DNA of 64,000 nt from Bacteroidota bacterium (GCA_043810345.1 JBDROF010000043.1:1112-65111), one strand, 5' to 3'; shown: positions 6,760 through 47,513, counted from the first letter of the stretch. Notes: generated from the letters alone by a model not told the origin. Translations and numbers: made by a program.

Positions 6760-7281
6760 ATGGGTAGAAACAGGGAGTCCTACTATTTTTCTAAACTCGG
6801 CGAACACTTTCCAGAATTGACCAATGGTGAAGTTATTCATTTATCAAATCCAGATGACCCACCCGATTTTTTAGTCAAACAAAAAGATATTGTTTTAGGG
6901 ATAGAAATTACTGAATTGATGAATATTTTACCGGGTGAGTATGATCTACAACAACAATTAAAGTTTCTTCAAGAAATTGTCGATTCAACAAAAGACAAAT
7001 TTGAGAAAGGAAATGATAGACTTTTAATGGTGGAGTTTCTTTTTCATGATCACATTAAACTGAGAAGGTCAGAAATTGATAATTATTCAAATACATTATC
7101 CGAATACATAGTTAAAAAAATTGAGGGTAAGAAACTTAAGAAGGATGAAGTTACCCAATTAGGTTCTGACTACCCTTATTATGTTCGGAAAATATTGGTA
7201 AGAAGAATAAATCCACCAGAAAATCCGGAGATTTGGAGTAAAGATGGGTGGTCCATTCAAAAAACCATTAGACAAGTCTAG
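6760..7281 (+). CDS. orphan hypothetical protein in an AT-rich islet (possible PD-(D/E)xK-like motif)
   Basis: 173 aa, AT-rich codon usage. PPDFLV...LGIEITE is spaced like a PD...ExK-type nuclease core, but with T in place of K. No family recognised. Confidence 0.4.
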   Translation: MGRNRESYYFSKLGEHFPELTNGEVIHLSNPDDPPDFLVKQKDIVLGIEITELMNILPGEYDLQQQLKFLQEIVDSTKDKFEKGNDRLLMVEFLFHDHIKLRRSEIDNYSNTLSEYIVKKIEGKKLKKDEVTQLGSDYPYYVRKILVRRINPPENPEIWSKDGWSIQKTIRQV

Positions 7282-14913: not shown

Positions 14914-15057
14914 TGGCAATGCTGGCAATGGTGGCAATGATGGCAATGATGGCAATGATGGCAATGCTGGCAATGATGGCAATGGTGGCAATGATGGCAA
15001 TGGTGGCAATGATGACAATGATGGCAATGCTGGCAATGGTGGCAATGATGGCAATAA
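14914..15057. repeat. tandem nonamer TGGCAATGN x16
   Basis: 16 head-to-tail units that vary almost only at position 9 (order c g a a a c a g a g a a c g a a). One unit carries G3->A and the last is tggcaataa. Confidence 0.97.
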
Positions 15058-15091: not shown

Positions 15092-16072
15092 ATGAAACGA
15101 ATCGAAAACATCGGAGTTTTCACCTCAGGTGGAGATTCCCCGGGCATGAATGCAGCCATCAGAGCTGTAGTCCGGACCGGCATCTGGGAAGGTTATGACA
15201 TGTTTGGGATCTACCGGGGGTATGAAGGATTGATCGACGATCAGATTGAACCCCTTTACAGCCATTCGGTCTCCAATATCATACAGCGGGGTGGAACCAT
15301 CCTGAAAACATCCCGGAGCAAGCGTTTTATGACTCTCGAAGGGAGGGCGAAAGCTTATGAGAACCTTATGAAGCACAACATCAATGCACTGGTGGCTATA
15401 GGGGGAAACGGGACCTTTACCGGGGCTGCCGAGTTTACGAAAGAGTTTGATATTCCGGTGATCGGACTACCGGGAACCATCGATAACGACCTCTATGGCA
15501 CCGACTATACCATCGGTTTCGATACCGCCATCAACACCGTGGTCGAGGCTACCGACAAGATCCGCGATACCGCAACTGCCCACGACCGCCTGTTCTTCAT
15601 CCAGGTGATGGGCAGGGATTCCGGGTACATCGCTCTCTGGAGCGGCGTGGCTTGCGGGGCTGAATTCATCCTGGTACCCGAAACCAAGACCTACATCGAT
15701 AACCTGACCCGGCTGGTGAAACACGATATCAGGAAAAACAAAACCTCCGGGATCGTGATCGTAGCAGAGGGAGATGATGCCGGAGATGCCGAAGCAATCG
15801 CAGCCAGGGTAAAGGAACAGCTTCCTGACCTGCAGACACGGGTCACCATCCTGGGGCATATCCAGCGGGGAGGTTCTCCCTCCGCCTGGGACCGGATGCT
15901 GGCCAGCATGCTGGGATATGCTTCCATCACAGCGCTGAAGGAGGGTCAGCAGGGGGTCATGGTCGGACTGATCAACAAGCAGATCGTCTATACCCCCTTT
16001 GAAGAGGCTATTAAAAGCAGAAAAGGAATGATCCTCGATCTGCTGGAGATGTCGCGGGTACTGGCTTTGTAG
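15092..16072 (+). CDS. pfkA: ATP-dependent 6-phosphofructokinase
   Basis: 326 aa with GVFTSGGDSPGMNAAIR, GGNGT, PGTIDND and MGR motifs. Confidence 0.93.
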   Translation: MKRIENIGVFTSGGDSPGMNAAIRAVVRTGIWEGYDMFGIYRGYEGLIDDQIEPLYSHSVSNIIQRGGTILKTSRSKRFMTLEGRAKAYENLMKHNINALVAIGGNGTFTGAAEFTKEFDIPVIGLPGTIDNDLYGTDYTIGFDTAINTVVEATDKIRDTATAHDRLFFIQVMGRDSGYIALWSGVACGAEFILVPETKTYIDNLTRLVKHDIRKNKTSGIVIVAEGDDAGDAEAIAARVKEQLPDLQTRVTILGHIQRGGSPSAWDRMLASMLGYASITALKEGQQGVMVGLINKQIVYTPFEEAIKSRKGMILDLLEMSRVLAL

Positions 16073-16075
16073 AAA

Positions 16076-16107
16076 TAGTGAGGTAGTGAGGTAGCGAGGA
16101 AGCGAAA
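16076..16107. repeat. tandem octamer TAGTGAGG/TAGCGAGG x4 (reverse complement of the CTACCTCG family)
   Basis: tagtgagg tagtgagg tagcgagg aagcgaaa. Starts 4 nt after the pfkA stop. Confidence 0.9.
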
Positions 16108-16118
16108 CGGCAAGAAAT

Positions 16119-16170
16119 TGCAATTCATGTGCAATATATGGCAATCCATGGCAATTCATGTGCAATTAAT
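16119..16170. repeat. imperfect 10-11-nt tandem repeat with GCAAT core x5
   Basis: tgcaattcatg tgcaatatatg gcaatccatg gcaattcatg tgcaattaat. The core is related to the TGGCAATG nonamer. Confidence 0.8.
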
Positions 16171-16198
16171 TCGTAATTCTTAAATCGTAATTCGTAAT
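16171..16198. repeat. tandem heptamer TCGTAAT x4
   Basis: tcgtaat tcttaaa tcgtaat tcgtaat. The last T is the first base of the priA TTG start codon. Confidence 0.9.
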
Positions 16199-18672: not shown

Positions 18673-18693
18673 GGGAAGAGGGAAGAGGGAAGA
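18671..18693. repeat. tandem heptamer GAGGGAA x3
   Basis: gagggaa gagggaa gagggaa. Overlaps the priA stop TGA (18670-18672). Confidence 0.9.
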
Positions 18694-18699
18694 ATATTC

Positions 18700-18727
18700 A
18701 ATCGAAAATCGTAAATCGTAAATCTTA
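18700..18727. repeat. tandem heptamer AATCGTA x4
   Basis: aatcgaa aatcgta aatcgta aatctta. The last unit contains the stop codon (18725-18727, complement) of the FtsB-like gene. Confidence 0.9.
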
Positions 18728-19033: not shown

Positions 19034-19044
19034 ACTTTTTCAGG

Positions 19045-19072
19045 GTCGAGGTTCAACGGTCAAGGGTCGAAG
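19045..19072. repeat. degenerate tandem heptamer GGTCGAG x4 (reverse complement of the CCCTCGA family)
   Basis: ggtcgag gttcaac ggtcaag ggtcgaa, between the FtsB-like start and the ppk stop. Confidence 0.6.
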
Positions 19073-23223: not shown

Positions 23224-23342
23224 CAGTCCACAGTCCACAGTTCACAGTCCACAGTCCACAGTCCACAGTCCACAGTCCACAGTCCACAGTCCACAGTCCA
23301 CAGTCCACAGTCCACAGTCCACAGTCCACTGTCTTCAGTCAT
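23224..23342. repeat. tandem heptamer CAGTCCA x15 (+2 degenerate)
   Basis: 15 in-phase units from 23224 to 23328 (one is cagttca), then ctgtctt and cagtcat. All three forward frames are open (SPQSTVH). Confidence 0.97.
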
Positions 23343-23351
23343 CTCTTATAC

Positions 23352-23386
23352 CCTCGTCCCTCGTTCCTCGTCCTTCTCCTTTTCCT
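23352..23386. repeat. tandem heptamer CCTCGTC x3 (+2 degenerate)
   Basis: cctcgtc cctcgtt cctcgtc cttctcc ttttcct. Overlaps the signal-peptide-like coding segment of the downstream T9SS gene. Confidence 0.7.
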
Positions 23387-23453
23387 CCTGCCACTATCCC
23401 CCTTTGCCCAATTCGACGCCGGTCCAAACGACACCATTAATCCCGGTATTCCG

Positions 23454-33032: not shown

Positions 33033-34001
33033 ATGAACTACTCGTCGGATGTGGAAGCAGTGGATGCCATGGTTGGGAAATATTCCCTGCTGAAACAGGA
33101 GATTGCCAAAGTAATTGTCGGACAGGATGAAGTGATCAAGAATCTGCTGATCTCCATTTTTTGTAAAGGACACTGTTTGCTGGTTGGTGTTCCGGGCCTT
33201 GCTAAAACCTTGATGGTTAACACACTTTCAAAAGCACTGGGATTATCCTATAGCCGGATTCAGTTTACACCCGACTTGATGCCTTCTGATATCATCGGCA
33301 CCGAGATCCTGGATGAATCGCGCCATTTCCGGTTTATTAAGGGACCAGTCTTCGCCAATATCATCCTGGCCGATGAGATTAACAGAACTCCGCCTAAAAC
33401 ACAGTCGGCCCTCCTGGAAGCGATGCAGGAGAAAGCCGTCACTGTTGCGGGAATCTCGTATCGGCTGGAAGAACCGTTCTTTGTTCTGGCCACTCAGAAC
33501 CCCATCGAACAGGAGGGCACCTATCCGTTACCGGAAGCTCAGCTCGACCGCTTTATGTTCAACATCTGGCTCGACTACCCTTCATTTGAAGAGGAGATCA
33601 AGATTGTTCAGAGCACCACCACAGAGAAAACTGTTTCCCCTGAGGTGGTACTTTCGGCGGAGGAGATCCTCTATTTTCAGAACCTGGTCCGGAAGATCCC
33701 GGTACCCGAGAACGTCTATAACTATGCGGTATCACTGGTGACCAAAACACGGCCCCGAACCTCTCATGCCATTGATTGGACTTCCGAATACCTCACCTGG
33801 GGTGCCGGGCCACGTGCTTCCCAATACCTGATCATTGGTGCGAAATGCCACGCCATCCTGAGCGGGAAATACTCCCCGGATATCGAAGATGTTCAAGCCG
33901 TAACAACCGCCGTCATTCGCCACCGGATCGTCCGTAACTACAAAGCCGAAGCGGAAGGAATCACGGTAGAAGATATGGTCAAGAAGCTGCTGGAGAGTTA
34001 A
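33033..34001 (+). CDS. MoxR-family AAA+ ATPase
   Basis: 322 aa: GVPGLAKT Walker A, ILADEINR Walker B, ATQNPIEQEGTYPLPEAQLDRF. Confidence 0.9.
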   Translation: MNYSSDVEAVDAMVGKYSLLKQEIAKVIVGQDEVIKNLLISIFCKGHCLLVGVPGLAKTLMVNTLSKALGLSYSRIQFTPDLMPSDIIGTEILDESRHFRFIKGPVFANIILADEINRTPPKTQSALLEAMQEKAVTVAGISYRLEEPFFVLATQNPIEQEGTYPLPEAQLDRFMFNIWLDYPSFEEEIKIVQSTTTEKTVSPEVVLSAEEILYFQNLVRKIPVPENVYNYAVSLVTKTRPRTSHAIDWTSEYLTWGAGPRASQYLIIGAKCHAILSGKYSPDIEDVQAVTTAVIRHRIVRNYKAEAEGITVEDMVKKLLES

Positions 34002-34003
34002 AG

Positions 34004-34122
34004 GCCAGATGCCAGATGCCAGGCTTCAGTCCGCAGTCTTCAGTCCGCAGTTGGCAATTTATATTCCTTATTCTTCATTCCTCATTTTCCTCGACCCTCG
34101 ACCCTCGACCCTCTTCCCTTGG
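34004..34122. repeat. 119-nt block of 17 consecutive heptads in one phase with changing unit type
   Basis: gccagat x2, gccaggc, ttcagtc cgcagtc ttcagtc cgcagtt, ggcaatt tatattc, cttattc ttcattc ctcattt, tcctcga ccctcga x2 ccctctt cccttgg. Spans the convergent MoxR / radical SAM gene ends. Confidence 0.9.
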
Positions 34123-35039
34123 TAAGTATCCCTTCGCTCCAACTCTCTCTCAATCCGCTTGAGCACTTCGTCATATCTGATCAGATCCCAGCTTAAATGG
34201 TGAAGCATTTGTGGAGGAACCTCCCCGGCTAATCGTTCAACAACAATCGTTGGTGAGAGCCGTTCCAGAAACCGGATGATAAAATCGATGTATTCTTCCA
34301 GGCTGAACTGGTGAAATTGGGAGGGATCAGTGATGTACTCTTGTTCCATCCTGGTTCCCCTGATTAGCTGAAGTTGATGGAATTTTATCGTATCGACTGG
34401 TAAACACGAAATGATTTTAGCTTCAGCCATCATATCATTCAGATCTTCCCCCGGAAGGCCGAAAATGAAATGAGCACCCACTCGTATTCCCAATTCATGG
34501 GTACGTTGAATGACCTGTTGACTGATCTCGAAATCATGTCCGCGGTTGATTCGTTCCAGGGTCTTATCCGAGCATGACTCCACCCCATACTCCACCTGGA
34601 CAAAATGGCTCTCCGACAACTTAGCAAAGTAGTGAAGTTTTTCCTCATCCACACAATCTGGTCTGGTTCCGATCACAAGCCCCACTACATCCGGATAGAT
34701 CAGCGCCTCTTCATACAACTCCTTTAAGCGGGATAACGGTGCGTAGGTGTTGCTATAAGGCTGAAAATAGACCAGAAACTGAGAGGCCCGCCGGTAACGG
34801 ACCGAATGAAAATCAATCCCTTTGGCGATCTGCGTGCGAACCGGCTCAATCGGATTGCAATAAGAGGGATTAAAAGCGTCGTTGTTGCAATAGGTACACC
34901 CCCCGGTGCCTTTGGTGCCGTCGCGGTTTGGACAGGTAAATCCCGCGTCCACCACTACTTTCTGTACCCGCCCGCCGAATACACTTCGGATGTACTCAGT
35001 GTAGGAATTAAAACGCCGGTTATGATCCCAGGGATACAA
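34068..35039 (-). CDS. TIGR01212-family radical SAM protein
   Basis: CPNRDGTKGTGGCTYCNN cluster motif and conserved body. TTG start. The last ~17 codons (..KRVEGRGSRKMRNEE*) are encoded by the heptad block. Confidence 0.85.
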   Translation of the reverse strand: MYPWDHNRRFNSYTEYIRSVFGGRVQKVVVDAGFTCPNRDGTKGTGGCTYCNNDAFNPSYCNPIEPVRTQIAKGIDFHSVRYRRASQFLVYFQPYSNTYAPLSRLKELYEEALIYPDVVGLVIGTRPDCVDEEKLHYFAKLSESHFVQVEYGVESCSDKTLERINRGHDFEISQQVIQRTHELGIRVGAHFIFGLPGEDLNDMMAEAKIISCLPVDTIKFHQLQLIRGTRMEQEYITDPSQFHQFSLEEYIDFIIRFLERLSPTIVVERLAGEVPPQMLHHLSWDLIRYDEVLKRIERELERRDTYQGKRVEGRGSRKMRNEE

Positions 35040-35044
35040 TTATA

Positions 35045-35080
35045 ATTTACGATTAATTCGATTTACGATTTACGATTTTT
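35045..35080. repeat. tandem heptamer ATTTACG x5 (reverse complement of the AATCGTA family)
   Basis: atttacg attaattcg atttacg atttacg attttt. Begins 6 nt upstream of the radical SAM start codon. Confidence 0.85.
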
Positions 35081-35144
35081 CCATTTCGCTACCTCGCTAC
35101 CTCGCTACCTCGCTACCTCGCCACCTCACCACCTCACCACATTT
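35081..35144. repeat. tandem octamer CTACCTCG/CCACCTCA x8
   Basis: ccatttcg, ctacctcg x4, ccacctca x2, ccacattt. Confidence 0.95.
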
Positions 35145-35171
35145 GAATGATCAAAGGTAGGAAAACCTCTC

Positions 35172-36917
35172 TTAAAAGCTGATGGTTGCGGCAAGCCGTC
35201 CGCTCCAGGTTGGAAGCTGCCCGAGCTGCATTTCGCCGGAAGGTGAATGATAGGCAATGATGCCATCCAGTGAAAGCCACTGAACCGGTCTGAAGCCGAG
35301 TGAGCAGGTGAGAGTTAAGACTTCACGGGTCGGATTTTGGGTCAGGTAATTGCACCCTGCGGTGGCAGAAAACCAGGAAGTGGGAGATGCCTGGAGATCA
35401 AATCCTGTTGTGATGAGTTTTGTGAGGCCGGAAGGCTTCTCCTCTCCGGTCCAGGAAACATAGAACCGGGAATTGAAATACCGCATGATGCTCAGGGATT
35501 GATTAAGTCCGATGCTGACCGAAGTGGACAGTTCCCGGTCCTCATCCCGTCGCATCTGATTGTTAATATAGGTAAAACTGACAGATGTAAGACAGTTAAC
35601 CTGCAGGATTCGCCAGGGATAAGAGGATGACAAGCCGGTAATCAGACTTCGATAGGTCACCGGATGAACCGTGTTTCGCGAAGTTTGCCAGGACGGCATT
35701 GCCTGGATGGTAAAAACGGGCCATTTTTTAACCCGGATCGTAAGATTTCCTCCACAAAGCAACGACCGGAACCTCCGGGTGTCATGCCCCTCCGGATCAC
35801 GCCGGATATGTTTTCCAAAGACACTATAGGTAAGTATTTTTTTAATAAGGGTACCTTGAATCTTCCCTTCGATGGTTTGATTATTTTTCCGCAGGAAAGG
35901 GGAGCCCATGGTTTGATAGCCCGGTCCTGTACGGGTATAACTCCCTTTTATTTTGATATTAGAGAGGTTGACCGACAGGGTACTCCTGCAGGCCCAATCA
36001 GCGTGCGAGCCGAGGCGGGGATTCAGAAATGAAAAGAACTTAAGGGCATCATTGTCTGCTTCCGGCACCGGGGCTTCCATGTCTGGCGTGAAAAAGGAGG
36101 CGGTTGCTTCTGCTTCGAAACGGATCCTTTGCTTCCAGAAGGTCAGCGCAAGTTCCGCCCCTGTTATCCAGTTCTCAGCGGGCGTGATCTTCAACTGGGC
36201 AGTATCAGGAAGGATGATGATGGTATCATATCCTTGGATGAGGGTATCGGCCGGCCGGGGAAAGAGGAACGATTGTTCCAGCGAAGAGTCCGGCCGATCC
36301 CAGGCATGCATCAGCGAAAGGTAGAAATGGCTTCGTTCTACTTTTCCAAATCCTGTTTTTGCCATCCACAGATACCGCCGGTAGGGCTCCTTGTAAGGTC
36401 CGAAACCACTGAGAACCCGGTTCGTTTGCCCATAGGTGAAAGCAGCATAAACCGGCCCCGGATTGATGGCGATATTGACCCCCCTGACGGAAACACCCGC
36501 CAGGATGAGGGGAGAATACACCGGATTACAATCACCGGCTTCCAGCGTGACTATCCACCTTAACCGCCGCTGAAGGTGATGGAATCGCGAGAGGGTGTCA
36601 CGGATCAGGGCTGACAACATCCTGCTGTAATCAAAGCGTAAGGTTACTGCATTCATCCCCTGGAGGTTTTTCTGATTTCCGGTGGCGTAAAACAGGGAGA
36701 ATCCCAGCGGCAGCCCGGCCACCTTCAGCTCCAGGTTCAACGCCTGCCGGAAATAGTTCGCAGGAAGTAATGAGCCCGGGAAAGTGGCGCTGGCAAAATC
36801 AAAGCTGCTGACGCTGCTTCCGTGAAGCTCCACCCAACTCTCCTGCTGCTGGCCGTTTACATGACCGGCCGGCAGCAGGAAGAGCAGGGTGTAAACCAGT
36901 GGGATGATCCGTTTCAT
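35172..36917 (-). CDS. predicted outer-membrane beta-barrel protein, family unknown
   Basis: ATG at 36917 gives the signal peptide MKRIIPLVYTLLFLLPAGHVNGQ. The pattern is alternating and beta-rich, with a C-terminal ...LAATISF. The gene lies 12 nt downstream of the 1098-aa gene. Confidence 0.5.
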   Translation of the reverse strand: MKRIIPLVYTLLFLLPAGHVNGQQQESWVELHGSSVSSFDFASATFPGSLLPANYFRQALNLELKVAGLPLGFSLFYATGNQKNLQGMNAVTLRFDYSRMLSALIRDTLSRFHHLQRRLRWIVTLEAGDCNPVYSPLILAGVSVRGVNIAINPGPVYAAFTYGQTNRVLSGFGPYKEPYRRYLWMAKTGFGKVERSHFYLSLMHAWDRPDSSLEQSFLFPRPADTLIQGYDTIIILPDTAQLKITPAENWITGAELALTFWKQRIRFEAEATASFFTPDMEAPVPEADNDALKFFSFLNPRLGSHADWACRSTLSVNLSNIKIKGSYTRTGPGYQTMGSPFLRKNNQTIEGKIQGTLIKKILTYSVFGKHIRRDPEGHDTRRFRSLLCGGNLTIRVKKWPVFTIQAMPSWQTSRNTVHPVTYRSLITGLSSSYPWRILQVNCLTSVSFTYINNQMRRDEDRELSTSVSIGLNQSLSIMRYFNSRFYVSWTGEEKPSGLTKLITTGFDLQASPTSWFSATAGCNYLTQNPTREVLTLTCSLGFRPVQWLSLDGIIAYHSPSGEMQLGQLPTWSGRLAATISF

Positions 36918-36944
36918 AGAACCGGAATGCATGAAGGTTTCTAT

Positions 36945-39900
36945 TTACTCACAACCAAGTTTTATCAGGATAGCAGTCTGTAAGGTATTTTGAACACAAG
37001 CTCCATCAGTGACAATACAGGTGACGTTCACCATACAGTCTCCCGAAAGACCGGGAAAGAACCCCGTCAATGTGGTAACGGGAATGGTGACCAATAGCTC
37101 TCTTTCTGAGACAGGGGTGGTGGAGAAGTGAGTTACTACCTCCAATAATCCTGAATATCCGGAGGAAGTTGGCGAGAAATGGCGGCAATCTGTGGTGGCA
37201 GAAGGAACCGTTTGATATGACAGGATAAGTTGAACAGTTAAGATCCGGGTATCATCCGTGATGCGGAATTGAATAGACTCTTCCGGAACCAGAGGATAGG
37301 ACAGGCATGGGGCTGACCTGCAGATTAACCCGGTCATGTCGCACAGGTACAAAGGCCCGGAGGTGATGGGGTTCGTCAGGGTAATCACCGGCAGGTTTGT
37401 TTCATAGGCGCCATCCTCGCGCTGGATATGCAGGGCAAAGGCAAAGCCATAATAACCGGATGATGGGGAAGTTGAATAGTTAAAGAGCAACATATTATTC
37501 CCACCAGGATCGAAATAGGTATACGGAATGGTGAAAGAGGATAGGGAAGCACAACTGCCGTTATGACTTCCGATCACGTGTCCATTCAGATAGATATTGT
37601 ACCTTGCAGGCGAGATGATCTCGATGCAGGCATTGCGAATGCACCCATCCACGTTGAAGCAATGGATAAATTCATGGGGACTTGCGCTGATCCCGGATTC
37701 ATTTTCACCAATCCATTCCGCTCCTTCAGGAGTCAGCGGGCAGCCAGGCCTGTCAACCAACACGGCATGAGCGTCGCGCATAGTGCATAGTCTGTCATGA
37801 TCGGAATCTACCAGAATATCTGTACTGGATACAATGGTCCGGTTCCACTCCCCTTCGCAGGAACGGACAGAATGCGGTTCTCCTGAGAAAGATGTGCGGA
37901 AATACGGCCCATCATCATTTTGAAGAGCAATACAACCATATCCTGGTTTGCATATCCACACAACACTATATAGATATAAGTGATCCGGAAGCAACGGAGG
38001 ATCGAAAACCGGCCGGATGGTCAGCGACTCCTTGCCGGGATGCAATCTGACGGCCTCCACATATTCCCGTGGAGGATCATCATAAATGGTTATTTTTAAC
38101 GTAATACATGAGGTATCAGCACCTGCACCTGCATCCATAAACCCTCCCAGACTTTTCCAGCGTTCGTACTGGGATAATCCCTGTTTCTCCGTATCGTTTT
38201 CGTCGACAGGAACGAGGATCACGCTGAATTCCGGCTGCAATGTTGTGATGGCTTTATCCTTTGGAGAGATCACTTTGAGCCGGTATCCATAATTAAAGCA
38301 AGGGATGATATAATCCTCCACTTCGCCGGAAGTCACTTCCCCCCAATACGAGGTGCTGTTCCCCTGCGGGATATCTCCATCGAGATTGGGAGTAAGGCGA
38401 AATCTTGCAGGACGATCTGCAGTAACGTCAGGAGCTTTCCCACTGTAAAAATAAAAACGGTATCCCGCACAGGTCGTATCACCGCCCCATGTTTCCGGGT
38501 CTATCCAAGCTACATTCCCGCTCAGGAGAGGAGCTGTACTGGTATTGTAGAGAGGATCCACTCGGGTCCAGGATAATTTGTCACTCCCCAGACAGTCTTC
38601 GTAATCATCATCCCAGTCGCCATCAGCATTCCAGTCTACCCATCCGGTAAATAGAAGCTTGTTTGAACGGATGTATTCCTGATGAATCGACATCTCCACA
38701 TCAATGCTGTATAGCCGGCATTGATCGCAATAATCGACAGTTGGAGTAAAGAAGATACCATCGTCAAAATTATCTTCTCCGGCGGAAATAGATCTGGAAT
38801 CGCTTTCCAGATCAGGTTTGATTTCATCGCACAAATACCTGTTTTCAATGGTTCCCAGCCATGCCTGCTGTGTTTCGGGAATGTATCTGTCATACACACA
38901 TATAGGCCCAAATGCCGTACGGAATAAAGAGATGTCGGAACCCGGATTGGGAAGAACGTCCTGATCAATCACATAATTGCCCTTCATCATCCAGTAACAA
39001 CGGGCGCCGTCGTGACGTAAAAGAGTACGGTATCCGGCAGGGGTTACCGGGTCGTCAGGGGCATCTCCGAAATCAAACCGTTTATCGGGAAACGTGATGG
39101 GAAAGATCGAGTCCTGAAGAAAATAATGCTCTTTGGTCAACAGATAGACTAGCCAGACATATCCTTTTTCCGGGTTCCATTGCACCTCTTTCCGTGGAAT
39201 GATCAACTGGGTTTCCTTGAGTTCGCTTTTTGAAAAAACCAGGTTCTCTTTGCTGAATTTTCGCGGGTAACTTGTAAGATCATATTGGTAAACCTGGAAC
39301 AGATAGGTCGCCGGTTCTGTCAATTGACCTGAAACCCTCCATTTAAAGACCAGGTCTTCGTCTGGGGCCAGACTCTCTTTGACATGAGGGCCGTCGACAA
39401 TGCTGAGGGTGACTGGAACTTCGGTCTGGGATTCATCAGCCACCTGGAACCAGAAGGGCGACGAGGGAGGGGCCAGTTGCTCTCCGTTTTTAGTATAGGC
39501 GGTGACCTGCCAGGCGTACTTTTTGTCTTTTTCCAACAGTCGTGCATTACCCGGGTATTGAAATATGGTACCGGAAATGGTATTACTCTGGTACCAGGAG
39601 GGATTGGAAGCAAGCGCCTGGTCGACCGTTTGATGAGGAAGCAACTCAACCATCCTGAATACAAAAACCATGATTATCTTAAAAGACATCAGTGTGGGAG
39701 GCATCCAGGTGAAGATCGGGAGGAGTTGATCGACCTGTGACTCATTTTCAGGAAAGATCAACTCGGGTGCCAGCGGGAAAATAAGTTCAGTCTGGATACA
39801 ATCTTCCCCTACCTCTCTTTGAGTGGAAGCATCGATTACCCGGATGCAGATGGAATAGGTGCCGGGGGGTACCGTTCCCGTTCTCAACACATAGCTTTCC

Positions 39901-40241
39901 ACCTGCTTGTTGCTGTAATTGATCTTCACCGGTTCCAGCTGGGAAAAGGCAGGCAGCCCGTTGAAGCCGGCTTTCAGGGTAAATACGGCAGATTTTCCGT
40001 CAAAAAGCAATCCTTTGGTTTCTTCGGTTACGGTTCCCAGCAGGTAAACCTGCAGATCTTTCCCTGAGAGGTTGATCAGTTGGGCATTATACAGATCCTT
40101 GACCCCAAACTGGTCAATGGGAGGGAGGTTCAACCTGACCAGCACTTCCTGGGAGAAGGAGTTCAATCCGGTCAGCAGGAACACAACCAGCAGACACCTC
40201 CACTTCTGTGTTTTTTTTCGGTTCTTTTCTTTCGGTTTCAT
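36945..40241 (-). CDS. 1098-aa secreted protein with a central GEVED domain
   Basis: Signal peptide (..LLTGLNSFSQ|E). The central segment runs from FDFGDAPDD...DGARCYW to WGEVTSGEVEDYIIP, the GEVED-domain signature. N-terminal Ig-like modules are present. The ~450-aa Cys-rich C-terminal region is unrecognised. There is no T9SS CTD. Confidence 0.55.
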   Translation of the reverse strand: MKPKEKNRKKTQKWRCLLVVFLLTGLNSFSQEVLVRLNLPPIDQFGVKDLYNAQLINLSGKDLQVYLLGTVTEETKGLLFDGKSAVFTLKAGFNGLPAFSQLEPVKINYSNKQVESYVLRTGTVPPGTYSICIRVIDASTQREVGEDCIQTELIFPLAPELIFPENESQVDQLLPIFTWMPPTLMSFKIIMVFVFRMVELLPHQTVDQALASNPSWYQSNTISGTIFQYPGNARLLEKDKKYAWQVTAYTKNGEQLAPPSSPFWFQVADESQTEVPVTLSIVDGPHVKESLAPDEDLVFKWRVSGQLTEPATYLFQVYQYDLTSYPRKFSKENLVFSKSELKETQLIIPRKEVQWNPEKGYVWLVYLLTKEHYFLQDSIFPITFPDKRFDFGDAPDDPVTPAGYRTLLRHDGARCYWMMKGNYVIDQDVLPNPGSDISLFRTAFGPICVYDRYIPETQQAWLGTIENRYLCDEIKPDLESDSRSISAGEDNFDDGIFFTPTVDYCDQCRLYSIDVEMSIHQEYIRSNKLLFTGWVDWNADGDWDDDYEDCLGSDKLSWTRVDPLYNTSTAPLLSGNVAWIDPETWGGDTTCAGYRFYFYSGKAPDVTADRPARFRLTPNLDGDIPQGNSTSYWGEVTSGEVEDYIIPCFNYGYRLKVISPKDKAITTLQPEFSVILVPVDENDTEKQGLSQYERWKSLGGFMDAGAGADTSCITLKITIYDDPPREYVEAVRLHPGKESLTIRPVFDPPLLPDHLYLYSVVWICKPGYGCIALQNDDGPYFRTSFSGEPHSVRSCEGEWNRTIVSSTDILVDSDHDRLCTMRDAHAVLVDRPGCPLTPEGAEWIGENESGISASPHEFIHCFNVDGCIRNACIEIISPARYNIYLNGHVIGSHNGSCASLSSFTIPYTYFDPGGNNMLLFNYSTSPSSGYYGFAFALHIQREDGAYETNLPVITLTNPITSGPLYLCDMTGLICRSAPCLSYPLVPEESIQFRITDDTRILTVQLILSYQTVPSATTDCRHFSPTSSGYSGLLEVVTHFSTTPVSERELLVTIPVTTLTGFFPGLSGDCMVNVTCIVTDGACVQNTLQTAILIKLGCE

Positions 40242-40350
40242 GGGCGTTTAGATTTGAATTTTATGTGAAATTACGCCGCAGGATATGTTCGCACAATGAG
40301 GAATGAGCAGTCACCCGATCCGGATTAGCAATACAGGAAAAGCGTTGAGT

Positions 40351-40370
40351 GAAATGAAACGAAACGAAAT
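40351..40370. repeat. tandem pentamer GAAAY x4
   Basis: gaaat gaaac gaaac gaaat. Ends 3 nt from the response-regulator stop codon (40374-40376). Confidence 0.6.
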
Positions 40371-40373
40371 GGT

Positions 40374-41135
40374 TTAAACTCCCATGGCGTGATCTTTAAG
40401 CCGGCTGAGGAACTCTTTCTTGCGGCTTTCCGAAATATCGACTTCCGCTTGATCGGCCATGATCAGCGTGCCTCCCTTGCCTCTGACAAACTTCTGGATA
40501 TGATGCAGATTGACGATATGCTTATTGTGGACTCTGCAGAACTGGAGGTCGGTAAGCAGGTTATCGTAAAAATTGAGAGTCCTGGAAACCATGACTTTAC
40601 GTTGGTCCGTAAGAAAGAAAAGGGTGTAATTACTTTCGGCCTGGCAACGGATGATCTCGTCAAGAGTAATGATGGTAAAACCGGTTAGGGAGGGTAAAAC
40701 AATTTTATCGGGCTTGTTTCTGATCGACTCCTGGAGGATTTGGTGCCGCTGGACAGGATAGGTTGTCTCTCTCCTTTCCAGAAACCGTGATAAAGCTTCC
40801 TGAAACTCCAGGTGACTGACAGGTTTCAGGAGATAATGAATAGCGGCCAGCTCAAATGCCTTGATCGCATAATTGTCATGGGCAGTCACAAAAATCACCT
40901 CAAAAGAGACCTCCCTGCAACGATCCAGGATGAAAAACCCGTCACAATCGGGAAGGGTGATGTCCAGAAATACCAGCTCAGGTTCCAGCGCCTGGATTTT
41001 TTCTATGGCTTCAGTTCCTGTCATAGCGGTATCCACCACTTCAAAACCGGGTCCATATCGTTCCAGTAAATTCCGGATGACCTGAAGGCTGTTCAGCTCA
41101 TCATCGACCAAAAGGGTTTTTACTTTCCGAACCAT
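40374..41135 (-). CDS. LytR/AlgR-family response regulator (REC + LytTR)
   Basis: 253 aa. Receiver domain (LLVDDE...VFLDITLPDCDGF) and LytTR domain (IIRCQAESNYTLFF...FCRVHNKHIVNLHHI). Confidence 0.9.
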   Translation of the reverse strand: MVRKVKTLLVDDELNSLQVIRNLLERYGPGFEVVDTAMTGTEAIEKIQALEPELVFLDITLPDCDGFFILDRCREVSFEVIFVTAHDNYAIKAFELAAIHYLLKPVSHLEFQEALSRFLERRETTYPVQRHQILQESIRNKPDKIVLPSLTGFTIITLDEIIRCQAESNYTLFFLTDQRKVMVSRTLNFYDNLLTDLQFCRVHNKHIVNLHHIQKFVRGKGGTLIMADQAEVDISESRKKEFLSRLKDHAMGV

Positions 41136-43909
41136 CTGAATAAAGAGTTAAAAAAACGTGGTGGATCACTTTCGTGAAAAACAGGGATGAATAGCTCAAC
41201 CCGGGTTCCCGTTTGACCGGGACTTTGTTCATCCAGATCGGTAACCCTCAGGTCAATGGTACGGCTCAGAAGCTTGTTGAGCATTAGCATGCGTTCTTCG
41301 ATGTTTTTCATCCCGGTAGACTGATGACCCACGCGCCGGGTAGCGATCTCGGCAGCGGCTTTCATCCCGATACCGTCGTCTTCCACGTTGACCTTCACCA
41401 CTTGATCCGATTTGGATACCGTTAATGTAACCAGGCCTTTGCCAGCCTTATTGGCCAGACCATGACGGATGGCATTCTCTAGAAAGGGCTGAATCAACAT
41501 CGGAGGAATCATGATCTCCTCTGGCTCTATGTCGTTGTCAATATCAATCCGGTAGTCGAATTTATCCTCAAACCGCAACTTTTCGAGATCAAGGTAAAGC
41601 CGGATGGTGGACAGCTCTTCCTCCAGCGAAACGAGGTTGTGTTTGGAGTTTTCCAGCACCCTTCGCATCAGTTTCGAAAAATTGGAGAGGTACAGACCTG
41701 CGGTCTCCTCTTCATGATGGAAAATAAAATGTTGGACGGAATTTAACGAGTTGAAGATGAAATGCGGATTCATCTGTAACCGTAAGGCCTTCTGCTGCAT
41801 CCAGAGATAATCGGTCCGGAATTTCATCCGGTGTTCGATTCGTTTGATGACCAGGAAAACAGAGCCTGCTACCAGGAACGACACCAGGAGTCCAATAATC
41901 AGATAAAAATACCACGTTTCATAGAAATAGGGATCAATGGTGAATCCGAGCTGTGCGGAAGAGTTGGAGAAAATTTCATTGGCATCTTTTGACCGGACCA
42001 GGAAGCGGTAGGTTCCTGCAGGTAGCTGAAAATACCTGGCCGAGAGGTTGCGGGTGGGGATCCAGGCCGAGTCATGCGGTTCAAGCTTATATTCATAAGA
42101 TAGCTGCTCATGATTGGTAAAACAGACACCTTTGAAAAAGATGGTGAGTGTGCGTTGGTTGGCCGGCAGGGAGAACCGGTGGTCTGCAGGATCAAACCTG
42201 TCTTTGTCGTTAATCACGATATGGTCGAAAAAGATGGTGGGAGGAGGAGGGCTCTTTTTCAACTCTTCCGGAATAAACGAGACCATCCCGTTGGAAGTAG
42301 CCAGCCAAAGGTAGTCTCCCTGTCGCTGAATGGCATGAACTTCATTCGAAGGAAGCCCGTCCCAGATGGTCAACGTACGAAACTGCCAGGTCCGGTCCCC
42401 GAATAACAACGCCTGGATCAGACCCTGATCCGTGCCGATCCACAGTGTGGTGTCATTGTCACAAAAAATATCCTCCACCCGCTGGCTTTTCAGTCCGTTA
42501 GCCTGTGATAACTGGAAAGAAGATCCATCCGGGGAGAGAATGACAACACCCGAAGAGGCCGTCCCTGCCACGATTCGTGCACCCCATTGCCTGAGGACAT
42601 TGATCCGGTCGGATAAAAGGGGATATTGGCGCGCCATCTCCTGATAGAGGTTGCCGTTATAGAAGAAAAGCCCATTCAACGTGCCAAGGTAAAGGTTACC
42701 GTCAGAGCTCTTTAAAAGGGATACCGTATGCTCGTAAAAGGAGTCTTTCCGTGAATCATAAACAAGCTTCCCGCGGCGATACACTACATACCCTTCACGG
42801 GAAGGAATATAGATATCTTTATCCGGAGCTTCAAACAATTGATAATACTTCAAAAGAATGATATGGGAAGGGGGCATCTTTTCCCCGGAAAGGCTGTACC
42901 GTAAATATTTCGACTGGGTCAGCCAGAGTTCCCCTGAAGAAGAGATCAGGATACTCCGGATGAACTTGGACGATTCTCCGTTGAGAAGCTCCTGGAAACC
43001 GGAAATCTGACCCTCTGATAGTTCTGCCGAAAACAATTTACCATTAGCCGTGGAAAGAAAAACCTGATGGTCTGCTATGTCAAACGTGATGATGTTGGTA
43101 TTTCCGTTGGACCGGAGGGGGAAAAAGATGTTTTTTTGGATAGAAGGCAGGTAAAGCAGTCCATTCCCTTCAGTGGCCACCCAATAATGATGTTCCCGGT
43201 CTTTCAGAATCCGGGTGATTCTGGAGTTCTTCAGGAATTCGTGTCTGACATCCGATCCCGGATGAACCGTGGCAAATCCTCCGTGTTCATTCCGGATCCA
43301 CAATGTTCCTTCACCGGTCAGATGAAGATTCATTGAATCTTCAGGGACCGGACGGAAAGCCGAAGGAGTTGCGAAATCATAATAGAAAGAGGTAAAAATA
43401 TTCTTTGGAAAGCTGAGGCTGTCTATCCATGTAACCTGATGCTGTGGATCAATGTGGATCACCTTTCCGGTTTCCCTTGCAGGCAGGTAGATATCGTCTT
43501 CAGGAGAGATATAGGTGCCAGTCATGAAATACCGGTGACCCCACCGTTGCAGGGAATCATTTAACGGAAAAAGCGCTATCTTTCCGTTGACAAGGCAGGC
43601 CAGTCGTCCTGTGAATGTGATCAGCCATAGTTTTCCCCGGCTCCCCGGGTAGAGTTTGACGAATGTACGATCCAGCAGCTTTGGCGGGAGTGGGATCACC
43701 CGGAATTCATATCCGTCATAGCAGGCAACCCCGTTACCGGTCGCCAGCCAGATTCTCCCGGTGGTGTCCTGGTACAGGTCATAGATGTTTGAACTGGGGA
43801 GCCCGTCAATAGGAGTATAGTGAAAGTAGAAAGGATCCTGCGAACGGACCGGAGTATTCAGGAAAAGAAAAATAATAACAGAAAAGAGAACCCGCTTTAT
43901 CATGTTCAT
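41120..43909 (-). CDS. sensor histidine kinase: periplasmic two-component-regulator propeller/Y_Y_Y region, TM helix, LytS/YehU-type His_kinase, HATPase_c
   Basis: Signal/anchor MNMIKRVLFSVIIFLFL. Propeller repeats (IWLATGNGVACYDG, LWIGTDQGL, LWLATSNGM). Also MNPHFIFNSLNSVQHFI and NVEDDGIGM. Overlaps the RR gene by 16 nt. Confidence 0.85.
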   Translation of the reverse strand: MNMIKRVLFSVIIFLFLNTPVRSQDPFYFHYTPIDGLPSSNIYDLYQDTTGRIWLATGNGVACYDGYEFRVIPLPPKLLDRTFVKLYPGSRGKLWLITFTGRLACLVNGKIALFPLNDSLQRWGHRYFMTGTYISPEDDIYLPARETGKVIHIDPQHQVTWIDSLSFPKNIFTSFYYDFATPSAFRPVPEDSMNLHLTGEGTLWIRNEHGGFATVHPGSDVRHEFLKNSRITRILKDREHHYWVATEGNGLLYLPSIQKNIFFPLRSNGNTNIITFDIADHQVFLSTANGKLFSAELSEGQISGFQELLNGESSKFIRSILISSSGELWLTQSKYLRYSLSGEKMPPSHIILLKYYQLFEAPDKDIYIPSREGYVVYRRGKLVYDSRKDSFYEHTVSLLKSSDGNLYLGTLNGLFFYNGNLYQEMARQYPLLSDRINVLRQWGARIVAGTASSGVVILSPDGSSFQLSQANGLKSQRVEDIFCDNDTTLWIGTDQGLIQALLFGDRTWQFRTLTIWDGLPSNEVHAIQRQGDYLWLATSNGMVSFIPEELKKSPPPPTIFFDHIVINDKDRFDPADHRFSLPANQRTLTIFFKGVCFTNHEQLSYEYKLEPHDSAWIPTRNLSARYFQLPAGTYRFLVRSKDANEIFSNSSAQLGFTIDPYFYETWYFYLIIGLLVSFLVAGSVFLVIKRIEHRMKFRTDYLWMQQKALRLQMNPHFIFNSLNSVQHFIFHHEEETAGLYLSNFSKLMRRVLENSKHNLVSLEEELSTIRLYLDLEKLRFEDKFDYRIDIDNDIEPEEIMIPPMLIQPFLENAIRHGLANKAGKGLVTLTVSKSDQVVKVNVEDDGIGMKAAAEIATRRVGHQSTGMKNIEERMLMLNKLLSRTIDLRVTDLDEQSPGQTGTRVELFIPVFHESDPPRFFNSLFRWFGK

Positions 43910-43943
43910 TAATCTCATGAGCAAAGATACATACGAAATATAT

Positions 43944-43976
43944 AAAAAAAGAGGCCATCTGTTTAATGGCCTCTTT
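43944..43976 (-). terminator. Rho-independent terminator of the POT transporter gene
   Basis: Perfect 8-bp stem gaggccat/atggcctc (43951-58 and 43966-73), 7-nt loop. In the minus-strand RNA it is followed by U7. Lies 25 nt downstream of the stop at 44001. Confidence 0.8.
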
Positions 43977-44000
43977 CCCGCTGTAAGCATGCAGGTACCC

Positions 44001-45647
44001 TTACTTCGTCGCTGCTTCCAGTCGTTTCATGATAGAGAAGATGAACGCGGCAGAGACCAGACAGCAGACGACAAAGACCATCCATACCTGCCACAGTTCC
44101 AGCCTGACCCAAAGCGTCGTGCCAACGAACAGCAGCGCATTCCCAATAGCTGTAGCAGCAAGCCATCCGCCCTGCATGAGTCCCTGAAACCGCGGAGGTG
44201 CGACCTTCGACACAAACGAGAGCCCCATCGGGCTGAGGTACAATTCAGCTACTGTTAAAATAAAGTAAGTTCCCATCAGCCAGTAAGGAGATACCCGATC
44301 GGGCGCAGGGTTCCCCTGCAGATCAAGCGGTGAAACCACCGTAAAGGAGGCCAGCATCATCAGCACGAAACCCATTGCGGCCATGATCATGCCGCTCCCG
44401 ATCTTTCTGGGGGTTGAGGCCTCCTTATTCCGTTTCCGCTGCCAGGCAAACAATCCTACCACAATTGGAGTAAGGAAGACGATCAGAATGGGATTGAACT
44501 GCTGGAATGTTTCGGGCTCGATCATATTGGCATTGCTAAACGTACCATAGAAGTACCATAAAAGCAATGTTCCGGCAACCAGAACAGCAGCTCCCACCAC
44601 ACGCATAATCGCTTTCATTCCTTTTCGTACAAGCATGACAATTCCAACGATGACTCCGATCAGTGACAGTAAAGCGGGCAGATAGAAAAATATAAATGTG
44701 AGCGGACCTACTGTTTTATCCGTGTAATCCCTGGCAAAAAGTGTCAGGGTAAGTCCGTTCTGGTGGAACGACATCCAGAAGAAAATAACGACCAGAAATA
44801 CCAGGCCCAGCGCAATAAGTCTTTTCTTCTCCTGAGCCCAGGGCATCTGGATGATGGATGCATCCTTCTGCACCATTTTTTTCCGGTCGGGAAGATGCCG
44901 TTTGAATCCCAGGTAGATTAACAGGGATACAACCATGGCAAGAGAGGCAATCCCGAAGGCATAGTTGTAGCCGGTGGAGAACACATGAATATATTCCTGG
45001 GCAAATTGCATCAGGTCGGCCACAGGTTGTCCCGAAAGCATAACTTTATCAGCAAGAGGTTGCATGGCAGAAGTATCAACCATGTTCCCGTCAATCAGGC
45101 GATGACAAAGAGCCGGCAGGTCTGGATCATATCCGTAGCCATTGGTATGTAGCCACCAGGTCCGGATAGCCCGGGCTGCACTGGGGGCGAAAAAAGCTCC
45201 GATGTTAATACCCATGTAAAATACGCTGAATGCGGAGTCCCTGAGTTTTCCATATTTCTCATTATCATACAACTGGCCAACCAATGCCTGCAGGTTCCCT
45301 TTGAACAATCCATTCCCAAAGGCAATGGTGAATAAACCGAGGATGGTGAAGGCGAGACCCATGCCAGGAATGACCAGCAGTGCATATCCCAGAAACATAA
45401 CCACCTGTCCGACCATGATGGTCCCTTTGTAATTCTGGGTGCGGTCGGCTATGAATCCTCCCAATAAAGCCAGGGCATAAATCGAAAAATAAAATATAGC
45501 ATAGATAATTCCGGCCTCATCGGCTGGTAGTCCATATCTTGCTTGTAGAAACAGAACCAGGATCGCCATCATGGTGTAAAACCCGAATCGCTCTCCCATG
45601 TTAGCGAAGAAGGCTACGTAAAGTCCTTTAGGATGTCCTTTGAACAT
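44001..45647 (-). CDS. proton-dependent oligopeptide transporter (POT/PTR2 family MFS)
   Basis: ATG at 45647 gives MFKGHPKGLYVAFFANMGERFGFYTMMAIL (PTR2 signature), followed by about 14 TM helices. Confidence 0.9.
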   Translation of the reverse strand: MFKGHPKGLYVAFFANMGERFGFYTMMAILVLFLQARYGLPADEAGIIYAIFYFSIYALALLGGFIADRTQNYKGTIMVGQVVMFLGYALLVIPGMGLAFTILGLFTIAFGNGLFKGNLQALVGQLYDNEKYGKLRDSAFSVFYMGINIGAFFAPSAARAIRTWWLHTNGYGYDPDLPALCHRLIDGNMVDTSAMQPLADKVMLSGQPVADLMQFAQEYIHVFSTGYNYAFGIASLAMVVSLLIYLGFKRHLPDRKKMVQKDASIIQMPWAQEKKRLIALGLVFLVVIFFWMSFHQNGLTLTLFARDYTDKTVGPLTFIFFYLPALLSLIGVIVGIVMLVRKGMKAIMRVVGAAVLVAGTLLLWYFYGTFSNANMIEPETFQQFNPILIVFLTPIVVGLFAWQRKRNKEASTPRKIGSGMIMAAMGFVLMMLASFTVVSPLDLQGNPAPDRVSPYWLMGTYFILTVAELYLSPMGLSFVSKVAPPRFQGLMQGGWLAATAIGNALLFVGTTLWVRLELWQVWMVFVVCCLVSAAFIFSIMKRLEAATK

Positions 45648-45810
45648 GATAATACTGATGTTTGTGAATACTTTATTAATTCCTGAAAAAGGGATCTGCA
45701 AAAATAAACATTTTTGTATACCGGCAAGGGCTGCATTCCTTATTGGTATATTTTTAGCTAATTTTATTCTCTGCTGTAATATTTTATTGTCATCATCGTC
45801 TACCCCTCAC

Positions 45811-47483: not shown

Positions 47484-47485
47484 CC

Positions 47486-47513
47486 TCATTCTTCATTCCT
47501 CATTCCTCATTTA
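47486..47513. repeat. tandem heptamer CTCATTC x4
   Basis: ctcattc ttcattc ctcattc ctcattt. It fills the convergent gap, and the last unit contains the stop codon (47511-47513, complement) of the HhH-barrel gene. Same units as 34074-34087. Confidence 0.9.

Follow-up and report, generated by a model that had tools for sequence, protein, structure and literature searches.

How can the unit of a tandem repeat change several times along an array while every unit stays in the same seven-nucleotide register? This question is raised by a 119-base tract (positions 34004 to 34122) located between two converging genes in a 64,000-nucleotide stretch of DNA (the window) from an uncultured Bacteroidales bacterium. 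The array occupies the entire 3'-3' spacer between a gene encoding a MoxR-type AAA+ ATPase and a gene encoding a radical SAM enzyme of the TIGR01212 family. An earlier note, made from the sequence alone, described the tract as seventeen heptads in one unbroken 7-nt phase and offered two explanations, namely, growth of a single array by unit duplication with progressive unit replacement, or the addition of 7 nt per step whatever the sequence. We identify the tract, with a probability of about 0.7, as a compound heptanucleotide simple-sequence repeat (SSR), that is, a prokaryotic long SSR of the class with 5- to 11-nt units, similar to the STRR arrays of cyanobacteria. The register puzzle is resolved as a trivial consequence of whole-unit slippage. 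The tract illustrates well a repeat class that is known but poorly understood, rather than a new mechanism, and many arrays of this kind are present in the genome.

Anatomy and register of the tract

The tract and its flanking genes comprise the following features.

33033 to 34001, plus strand: MoxR-type AAA+ ATPase gene (open reading frame [ORF] of 322 residues; Pfam bpMoxR, AAA_3 and AAA_5 on the identical protein), which closes a run of plus-strand genes.
34004 to 34024, plus strand: block A, GCCAGAT GCCAGAT GCCAGGC (rotation CAGATGC), in phase with block B via an invariant CAG.
34025 to 34052, plus strand: block B, TTCAGTC CGCAGTC TTCAGTC CGCAGTT, a 14-nt super-unit (TTCAGTC CGCAGTC) present twice or, alternatively, CAGT plus three variable nucleotides.
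34053 to 34066, plus strand: transition, GGCAATT TATATTC (the reverse complement of GGCAATT is AATTGCC).
34067 to 34087, plus strand: block C, CTTATTC TTCATTC CTCATTT, which holds the radical SAM stop codon (34068-34070).
34088 to 34108, plus strand: block D, TCCTCGA CCCTCGA CCCTCGA (TCGAGGG in the radical SAM sense), which encodes nonhomologous tail residues.
34109 to 34122, plus strand: CCCTCTT CCCTTGG (reverse complement CCAAGGG AAGAGGG), the Q-G-K-R codons of the radical SAM gene, not derived from the array.
34068 to 35039, minus strand: TIGR01212 (MnmL/YtqA-type) radical SAM gene, 323 residues, of which 313 to 323 are array encoded.
34095 to 34118, minus strand: canonical G-quadruplex motif GGGAAGAGGGTCGAGGGTCGAGGG, provided by block D when read in the radical SAM sense (a sequence motif only).

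The MoxR stop codon occupies positions 33999 to 34001, and the array begins 2 nt further. Comparison of the tract with itself gave an identity of 0.67 at a lag of 7 nt, 0.59 at 14, 0.44 at 21, and 0.41 at 28, other lags giving ~0.25. Tandem Repeats Finder (TRF) reported four 7-nt arrays and the 14-nt super-unit TTCAGTC CGCAGTC in 2.3 copies with 94% matches. These periods of 7 and 14 nt and the lag-7 identity indicate head-to-tail units in the 5- to 11-nt range over a length exceeding chance, as in long SSRs. In the radical SAM sense, the tract reads CCAAGGG, AAGAGGG, TCGAGGG (twice), TCGAGGA, AAATGAG, GAATGAA, GAATAAG, GAATATA, AATTGCC, AACTGCG, GACTGAA, GACTGCG, GACTGAA, GCCTGGC, and ATCTGGC (twice). 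Block D provides one of only three G3N1-7 ×4 motifs found on both strands of the window, in the form G3N4G3N4G3N4G3. The tract is base-identical in the window, in NCBI contig JBDRSY010000438.1 (GCA_043824395.1), and in the Logan assembly of SRR26275509. An assembly artefact is unlikely, as these three assemblies agree (perhaps from the same reads or population) and relatives carry orthologous arrays. A plus-strand ORF of 48 residues (34016-34162) was judged spurious by inspection, its translation being a low-complexity reading of the repeat.

Cutting positions 34004 to 34122 into heptamers reproduced every unit listed in the earlier note. The last two heptads, CCCTCTT CCCTTGG, fit this cut but are ancestral gene codons and not repeat units. 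Since a tandem repeat has no intrinsic start and its unit boundary is freely chosen, phase is informative only where the units are similar. Base matches between pairs of blocks were therefore scored by distance modulo 7. Offset 0 was the best offset for the pairs A-B (0.49), B-transition (0.50), transition-C (0.52), and B-C (0.61). The units TTCAGTC (block B) and TTCATTC (block C) are identical at six of seven positions, and the 14-nt transition holds the two blocks in register. Blocks A, B, the transition, and block C, being mutually similar at offset 0, thus form one array in one register, and the unbroken phase stands for this portion of the tract (34004-34087, ~12 heptads). It does not extend to block D, which is displaced by 2 nt: matches at offset 0 were at the chance level of 0.25 for both C-D and B-D, with the best offset at +2 in each case (0.48 and 0.42, respectively). 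At the C-D junction, which reads TCGAGGA, AA, ATGAGGA in the radical SAM sense, homologous positions are 2 nt apart. Block D is therefore a related array that is out of register, and the register in which it was written is arbitrary.

The conservation of phase had been presented as evidence in itself. This holds only for similar units, because unrelated abutting arrays can always be written in phase. The comparison with the chance expectation of 1 in 7, called for in the earlier note, was made on 14 junctions between adjacent arrays of the same period in all of the fetched loci; 5 were in phase (P = 0.039), as were 4 of the 8 within this clade (P = 0.018). This is above chance, but phase is arbitrary where adjacent units are dissimilar, and the junctions showing the clearest unit similarity (best-offset match of 0.53 to 0.71) belong to the in-phase set. 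Between dissimilar unit families there is no phase rule: CAGTC and CCCTCG units stand at a relative phase of 2 in the tract and of 4 at 23224 to 23373.

Orthologous spacers and whole-unit changes

A clade of aquatic, uncultured Bacteroidales shares the MoxR/radical SAM arrangement. The GTDB species representatives included no syntenic close relative (best MoxR match, 77%), and a radical SAM gene was found nearby only in L006. Orthologous loci were obtained from a metagenome scan (L083) and from contigs encoding radical SAM homologues (all others). They are listed below with the identity of their MoxR genes to that of the window at 4-fold sites and the content of their spacers in the radical SAM sense.

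L163, 0.72: YTCAAGR in 4 to 5 copies, from the YQG codons on.
L167, 0.47: TTCAGGG, nine ACGARGG-type units (one AAGAGGG), and ACGTGAR ×3, followed by AATTGCG, AACTGCT, TACTGCC ×2, TACTGGG, and AACTAG.
L173, 0.41: YTCAAGR in 4 to 5 copies, from the YQG codons on.
L174, 0.40: a long mixed array.
L177, 0.38: a short GAGG-rich stretch, ACTGCCT ×4, ACTGCCA, ACTGGGA, and ACTAG.
L083, 0.35: no array; two terminator-like hairpins, GCCGCCATGAATGGCGGC and GAGCCGCAATTTATTGCGGCTC.

Alignment of the orthologous spacers, which the earlier note recommended, revealed lineage-specific arrays in six lineages, with differing copy numbers and unit variants and with unit families in common. Aligning the window spacer directly with that of L083 at the DNA level gave no information, since L083 is without an array. 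The segment AATTGCC AACTGCG GACTG of the window is positionally homologous to the L167 segment in which AATTGCG takes the place of AATTGCC. Counted from the QG codons, the AATTGC anchor lies in phase 1 in the window and in phase 6 in L167. The positional homologues of block B in L167 and L177 are ACTGCYT units, and the site of block D carries ACGARGG ×9 in L167. Block A, which reads ATCTGGC in this sense, looks to be the last ...CTGG... unit amplified specifically in the window. Neither block A nor block B is present in L163, the closest relative, whose array is different and much shorter.

Changes involving whole units were detected between close relatives. L177 and L178 encode identical radical SAM proteins, and their orthologous spacers differ by exactly one additional ACTGCCT heptad in L178. 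The six assemblies of the L167 lineage differ by 10 to 31 single-nucleotide polymorphisms per ~20 kb. Their indels include the loss of 8 nt (one GGTGAAAT) and of 56 nt (eight ACGARGG), both corresponding to whole units inside arrays, the only exceptions being a 1-nt change in a T run and a scaffold gap. Length thus changes by whole units in relatives (+1 heptad, -1 octamer, -8 heptads), as it does in long SSRs. The 56-nt change is located after a gene encoding a 685-residue protein (L167 6224-6295), where L167 has ten ACGARGG heptads and the near-identical L169 has two, from polymorphism or from assembly collapse. The orthologous spacer is filled by (AATGAGG) ×4 in the window (47484-47511) and is only 9 nt long in L163.

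The octamer arrays of the window behave similarly, shifting their unit gradually while staying in phase, as in the series ATTTCGCT ATTTCACC ATTTCACC ACATCACC ACCGCACC ... ACTGCACC at 61420 to 61514. In the spacer located 5' to the radical SAM gene, ATCGAATTAATCG occurs exactly in both the window and L163; each octamer variant is present about once in L163, and the window contains GGTGAGGT twice and AGCGAGGT three times.

These observations are consistent with a mechanism in which slipped-strand mispairing or unequal exchange would add or remove whole units. Because the changes are whole units, register would be kept automatically. Point mutations in single units, subsequently amplified into sub-blocks, would generate the in-phase series leading from CAGATGC to CAGTCYK and then, through the transition, to the units of block C. 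Block D (TCGAGGG in the radical SAM sense) would be a second, related array adjoining the QG codons with a 2-nt offset to block C. Growth may be limited only by selection on the flanking genes, halting 2 nt past the MoxR stop codon; on the other side, the array would have run over the original radical SAM stop codon, adding a dispensable tail of 11 residues. Growth by unit duplication and progressive replacement, the first of the two explanations offered in the earlier note, is thus largely correct for blocks A to C, in agreement with their in-phase similarity and with the whole-unit polymorphism in relatives. Slippage is probably the molecular cause, and this particular array would have no sequence-specific function.

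The C-terminal end of the radical SAM enzyme

The proposal that the tract supplies the stop codon and the last 17 codons of the radical SAM gene was borne out, since the stop codon (34068-34070) lies inside the tract. Comparison with TIGR01212 homologues also confirmed the suggestion that the C-terminal tail is an extension. The NCBIfam TIGR01212 profile matched residues 9 to 311 over positions 1 to 300 of 302 (E = 3e-96), thus ending near residue 313 of 323, and the match to Pfam Radical_SAM_C ended at residue 302. The L083 ortholog stops at residue 312, with the terminus QGRRYQ (QGRR where the window has QGKR). Residues 313 to 323 (GRGSRKMRNEE, 34071-34103) are therefore an 11-residue array-encoded extension. 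Exact-protein look-ups returned no match for the radical SAM protein of the window or for the product of the gene at 15092 to 16069.

Past the conserved QG, the C-termini of 19 homologues are hypervariable in length and sequence, one of them consisting of TKDEGRG ×3 encoded by nine heptads. In all array-bearing relatives (L163, L167, L173, L174, and L177), the 3' array begins at the conserved QG codons, and the Q-G-K-R codons may have acted as a proto-repeat or as a boundary for block D. Arrays may also extend the other gene. In L174 (2123-2235; also in L175 and L176), (CATCNCG) ×7, which reads GATGCGN in the MoxR sense, lengthens the MoxR ORF to 336 residues versus 322. Therefore, either flanking gene can gain an array-encoded tail.

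The overlap with a gene invites comparison with the contingency loci of Haemophilus, Neisseria, and other bacteria, in which repeat number switches a gene on or off. The similarities are a unit length that is not a multiple of 3, an overlap with an ORF, and slippage that shifts the frame. However, simulated copy numbers of 0 to 6 for block D left the conserved protein intact, and the ORF always ended inside block C. In the radical SAM sense, block C offers stop codons in all three frames, so slippage would be harmless to the enzyme core. Thus, slippage at this locus changes only a dispensable C-terminal tail of 16 to 30 residues following ERR, without acting as an on/off switch, and the gene encodes a housekeeping tRNA-modification enzyme rather than a surface determinant.

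Alternative explanations and known repeat classes

Arrays are abundant in the window, where they are present in 14 of the 37 spacers of at least 20 nt, some of which are 50 to 99% array, and cover 12% of intergenic bases versus 0.5% of genic bases. The mostly noncoding location and a unit length that is not a multiple of 3 are those of long SSRs, the tract overlapping only the dispensable 3' tail of an ORF. The density of arrays in this clade is far above that of ~1.4 Mb of other Bacteroidota loci. All four unit families of the tract recur at other loci of the window. The GATGCCN-like family of block A is found as CCGGATG/CCGGATA at 62959 to 62991 and as GATGCCG in L174. The CAGTCNN family of block B occurs at 23224 to 23333 (×15.7), 60808 to 60827, and 62535 to 62553. 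CCTCATT ×4, of the block C family, fills the spacer at 47484 to 47511, and the CCCTCGN family of block D is present at 23351 to 23373 and, as its reverse complement, at 19042 to 19068 and 18671 to 18693.

Several observations are not what purely neutral slippage in situ would predict. The array of the window is identical in three assemblies and thus shows no polymorphism of its own (the assemblies may share one population), and the 56-nt difference in the L167 lineage could result from collapse of a short-read assembly. Units are common to different spacers far more often than expected: with at most one mismatch, there were 15 pairs of 7-mers versus 3.05 expected and 11 pairs of 8-mers versus 0.54 expected (P < 0.0005 in both cases). 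The order CGAGGG, A-rich, GACTG of the tract is repeated at 23224 to 23400, with a 17/19 match (GACTGAAGACNGNGGACTG). The GC skew of array bases in the sense strand of co-directional spacers is +0.435, versus -0.07 for other intergenic DNA and +0.03 for coding DNA, and the sense strand is the G-rich one in 10 of the 11 arrays with a clear skew (P = 0.012). Array types do not follow relatedness: the window resembles L167 and L177, and its closest relative, L163, resembles L173. Finally, a 47-nt stretch comprising the ACTG (ACTGCCT) block, the MoxR stop codon, and the last five codons is identical at 45 of 47 positions between L167 (11010-11060) and L177 (6970-7020), at a 4-fold identity that is saturated (0.36), and is better conserved than the adjacent coding DNA. 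Together, the sharing of units between loci, the sense-strand G-richness, and the invariant CAG(T) core are unexplained by simple neutral slippage, and either selection acting on short cores or the exchange of units among arrays could play a part. The unit sharing is at the same time a resemblance to STRR arrays, in which few heptamer families are dispersed over many loci.

Exchange between arrays is the basis of an alternative that we consider unlikely, although it survives better than the others. Ectopic recombination, gene conversion, or template switching would bring in copies of blocks from arrays elsewhere in the genome, so that a satellite-style library of units would be differentially amplified at each locus, with slippage as a compatible local engine. 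The recurrence of all four families, the like block order and 17/19 match at 23224 to 23400, and the incongruent array types all point in this direction, as does the presence of the octamer ATTTCACC at nonorthologous sites in L083 and the window and of AGTGAGTT/GGTGAGTT even in a Spirosoma genome. However, no conserved nonrepeat flanks, terminal inverted repeats, or target duplications were found around the blocks, and no conversion tract was directly demonstrated. Local descent explains the in-phase similarity of blocks A, B, and C more simply, and a local boundary or seed is suggested by the QG codons, at which the array begins in every lineage that has one. The locus at 23224 to 23400 consists of (CAGTCCA) ×15.7, followed by CTGTCTT CAGTCAT CTCTTAT and CCCTCGT ×3, the 17/19 match being to GACTGAAGACTGCGGACTG.

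Selection on short cores underlies an alternative that is improbable in our opinion. Arrays would be functional, periodic landing pads whose cores (CAGT/ACTG, GAGG, and GTGA), spaced by 7 to 8 nt, are kept by selection, slippage only tuning copy number. A protein of the OB-fold, S1, cold-shock, or a similar type could bind the pads as single-stranded RNA or DNA, or the pads could provide orientation-specific sites for Rho loading, the antisense transcript being C-rich, G-poor, and unstructured. The CAG(T) core is indeed invariant over seven in-phase units of the tract, other positions being variable, and is found with other 3-nt tails at 23224, 60808, and 62535 and in L167 and L177. The units common to several loci, the G excess of the sense strand, and the conservation of the ACTG block between L167 and L177 would also be accounted for, as would the block order of the radical SAM 5' spacer (see below), kept in seven lineages despite near-saturated synonymous sites. 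Positions 34053 to 34122 contain, in the MoxR sense, 26 C and 7 G in 70 unstructured nucleotides, which may be compared with the composition of a rut site (~70 to 80 nt, C-rich and G-poor). Binding of S1, Csp, or Csr was proposed for TAACTGA heptamers (MacGregor 2015, PMC4679880). Conversely, the spacer is free of arrays in L083 and holds a different, much shorter array in L163; copy numbers are polymorphic, with a rapid turnover of array types. Periods of 7, 8, 9, and 10 to 11 nt are mixed within single spacers, the invariance of the core is statistically weak (the chance of three invariant positions being contiguous is ~0.2), and the arrays of other Bacteroidota loci show no orientation bias (10 versus 12, with the window and L083 removed). 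The broader form of this proposal is more doubtful still. It would involve a clade-wide, transcription-oriented system in which spacers are built from a small vocabulary of 7- to 8-nt units, with the cores CAGT/ACTG, GAGG, and GTGA selected at fixed spacing as periodic sites for a single-stranded nucleic acid-binding protein or as polar sites with a G-rich sense strand and an antisense strand accessible to Rho. If this were true, other phyla would display the same phenomenon in the form of the CAGT-plus-3 STRR heptamers of cyanobacteria and of the TAACTGA repeats.

A terminator would be expected between convergent genes, and the L083 ortholog has two hairpins at this place. Nonetheless, an intrinsic (hairpin) bidirectional terminator, a structured noncoding RNA, or a miniature transposon is highly improbable for the tract. 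Neither strand contains excess secondary structure in comparison to shuffled controls (z = +0.90 and +0.83), and the Rfam search of the tract returned nothing at E ≤ 1. An intrinsic terminator was ruled out by these positive fold z-scores and the lack of a G+C-rich hairpin with a T run within 34002 to 34122. As a candidate MITE (a miniature transposable element with inverted repeats) or repetitive extragenic palindromic (REP)-like element, the tract offers only weak inverted repeats (arms of 9 to 14 nt, 79 to 89% complementary, away from the array ends), and the flanks of other array loci are unrelated. Finally, a dedicated sequence-blind 7-nt adder acting like telomerase or a templated-addition enzyme, to which the second explanation of the earlier note amounts, has only the 7-nt register over 119 nt in its favor and can be discarded with near certainty: block D is 2 nt out of register, arrays with 8-, 9-, and 10- to 11-nt units abut 7-nt ones, polymorphisms copy or lose existing units (in one case an octamer), and junction phase is arbitrary wherever adjacent units are dissimilar.

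The compound SSR reading can be set against repeats described previously. Mazel et al. reportedly described in 1990 cyanobacterial STRR heptamer families with the units CCCCAGT, TTGGTCA, and CAACAGT. These families and the arrays of the window are alike in being tandem heptamers of few families spread over many intergenic sites. The STRR1 unit rotated to CAGTCCC is one base from the CAGTCCA, CAGTCCG, and CAGTCCT present here, and STRR3 bears CAGT, which could be coincidence. The host is nevertheless a member of the Bacteroidales, i.e., of another phylum than the heterocystous cyanobacteria, its units match STRR1 at six of seven positions at best, octamers and nonamers are mixed in, and the unit set is not identical. 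Thus, the tract works like STRR arrays without belonging to those families, and the categories of contingency locus, terminator hairpin, and MITE do not apply to it.

Long SSRs with 5- to 11-nt units were surveyed by Mrazek, Guo and Shah (2007), who, as relayed in PMC4679880, found heptamers to be the commonest and proposed slippage. In that account, they share with the present arrays the head-to-tail 7- to 9-nt units, a length far above chance, and an overwhelmingly intergenic location. Abundance varies between genomes, and arrays make up ~12% of intergenic bases here; Bacteroidales are absent from the repeat-rich genomes listed in that account. In contrast to the surveyed long SSRs, the arrays of the window are compound, with families placed end to end, use a small common vocabulary, and are G-rich in the sense strand. 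Reports of 6- to 9-nt SSRs are otherwise rare (PMC4692102). Arrays of TAACTGA and other heptamers occur in Beggiatoaceae, Cyanobacteria, and five Bacteroidetes, and Bacteroidetes with intergenic regions containing multiple heptamers have relatives with a matching gene neighborhood and no repeats (MacGregor 2015, PMC4679880). The likeness to these repeats (PMC4679880) includes their intergenic location, the presence of other heptamers in the spacers of Gramella and Aequorivita, the existence of repeat-free close relatives, as L083 here, and an ACTGA core common with GACTGAA. TAACTGA repeats are mostly located just upstream of start codons, in the forward orientation, whereas the present tract lies between two stop codons, in a 3'-3' spacer, and enters the end of a gene. 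The TRF table of the window contains no TAACTGA array, GACTGAA being the nearest unit. The amplification of mutated units in register is also a property of eukaryotic compound or interrupted microsatellites and of the satellite library model, in which unit variants from a library common to related lineages are differentially amplified, as they may be here. The present arrays are bacterial, range from tens of bases to about 140 bases, and fill operon spacers.

What heptamer arrays (STRR, TAACTGA, and long SSRs) do is a decades-old question, and this clade offers a tractable comparative system in which to oppose selection to mutational by-product. Its assets are dense arrays, a common vocabulary, strand polarity, and a conserved block order in the radical SAM 5' spacer. 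The tract itself is valuable as a well-documented case of bacterial array behavior, with orthologs from seven lineages and strain-level polymorphism. Arrays can stand in place of terminator hairpins, occupy a spacer as far as the last codon under constraint, and overwrite a stop codon, thereby generating hypervariable protein tails; in some lineages, their turnover outpaces that of synonymous sites. What remains of interest is that the arrays of this clade use a common vocabulary, are polar with respect to strand, and conserve their cores.

The radical SAM 5' spacer (window 35040-35171) has a single block order upstream of the TTG start codon in all seven lineages: an ACCTTTR motif, octamers with GTGA/GAGG cores, ..GAAAT octamers, AATCGTA-type heptamers, ATTGTA, and TTG. 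The orthologs are at L083 5953-6093, L163 9827-10000, L167 9833-10000, L173 5884-6000, L174 1015-1153, and L177 5867-6000. A terminator hairpin precedes the ACCTTTR motif in five lineages, and the heptamers of L177 are degenerate (ATTCGTA/ATTCTTA). Copy numbers and variants differ between lineages, whose synonymous sites are near saturation. Judged by its sequence, this spacer looks like a conserved array-built leader. In L174, the upstream neighbor of the radical SAM gene is incomplete and carries no annotation. An ORF of the size of the PTR2 transporter lies directly upstream in L163, L167, L173, L177, and L083 (Pfam PTR2 in 4 of 5). In the window, the PTR2 transporter gene (44001-45701) is separated from the radical SAM gene by four genes (35172-43990), of which two encode large proteins with no Pfam hit, one a LytTR response regulator, and one a Reg_prop/Y_Y_Y histidine kinase.

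Arrays with 7-, 8-, 9-, or 10- to 11-nt units are distributed over positions 10985 to 63100 of the window, at 11027, 13606, 14850, 14914, 16076-16199, 18671-18724, and 19042 and further at 35045-35135, 47484, 56866-56941, 60808-60868, 61420-61514, and 62959-63091. The only clear exception to sense-strand G-richness is AAATAGCG at 56866. The longest array, a 142-nt nonamer array (TGGCAATGA ×15.8), is located between two plus-strand genes (14914-15055), and the MoxR/radical SAM spacer of L163 contains a pair of GGCAAGGAT, which is similar to this nonamer. Distant Bacteroidota also bear 7- to 8-nt arrays adjoining MoxR. L039 (Spirosoma utsteinense) carries AGTGAGTT ×8 and then its near reverse complement ×9 (4309-4445 and 5905-5981), these octamers being as in L083. 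L009 carries the octamers TAACTGAC and CAACTGAA (1969-2012 and 5916-5997), and in L015, a Saprospiraceae metagenome-assembled genome, AAATGTA and TTTTACA arrays flank MoxR on both sides (5494-5672 and 6964-7131).

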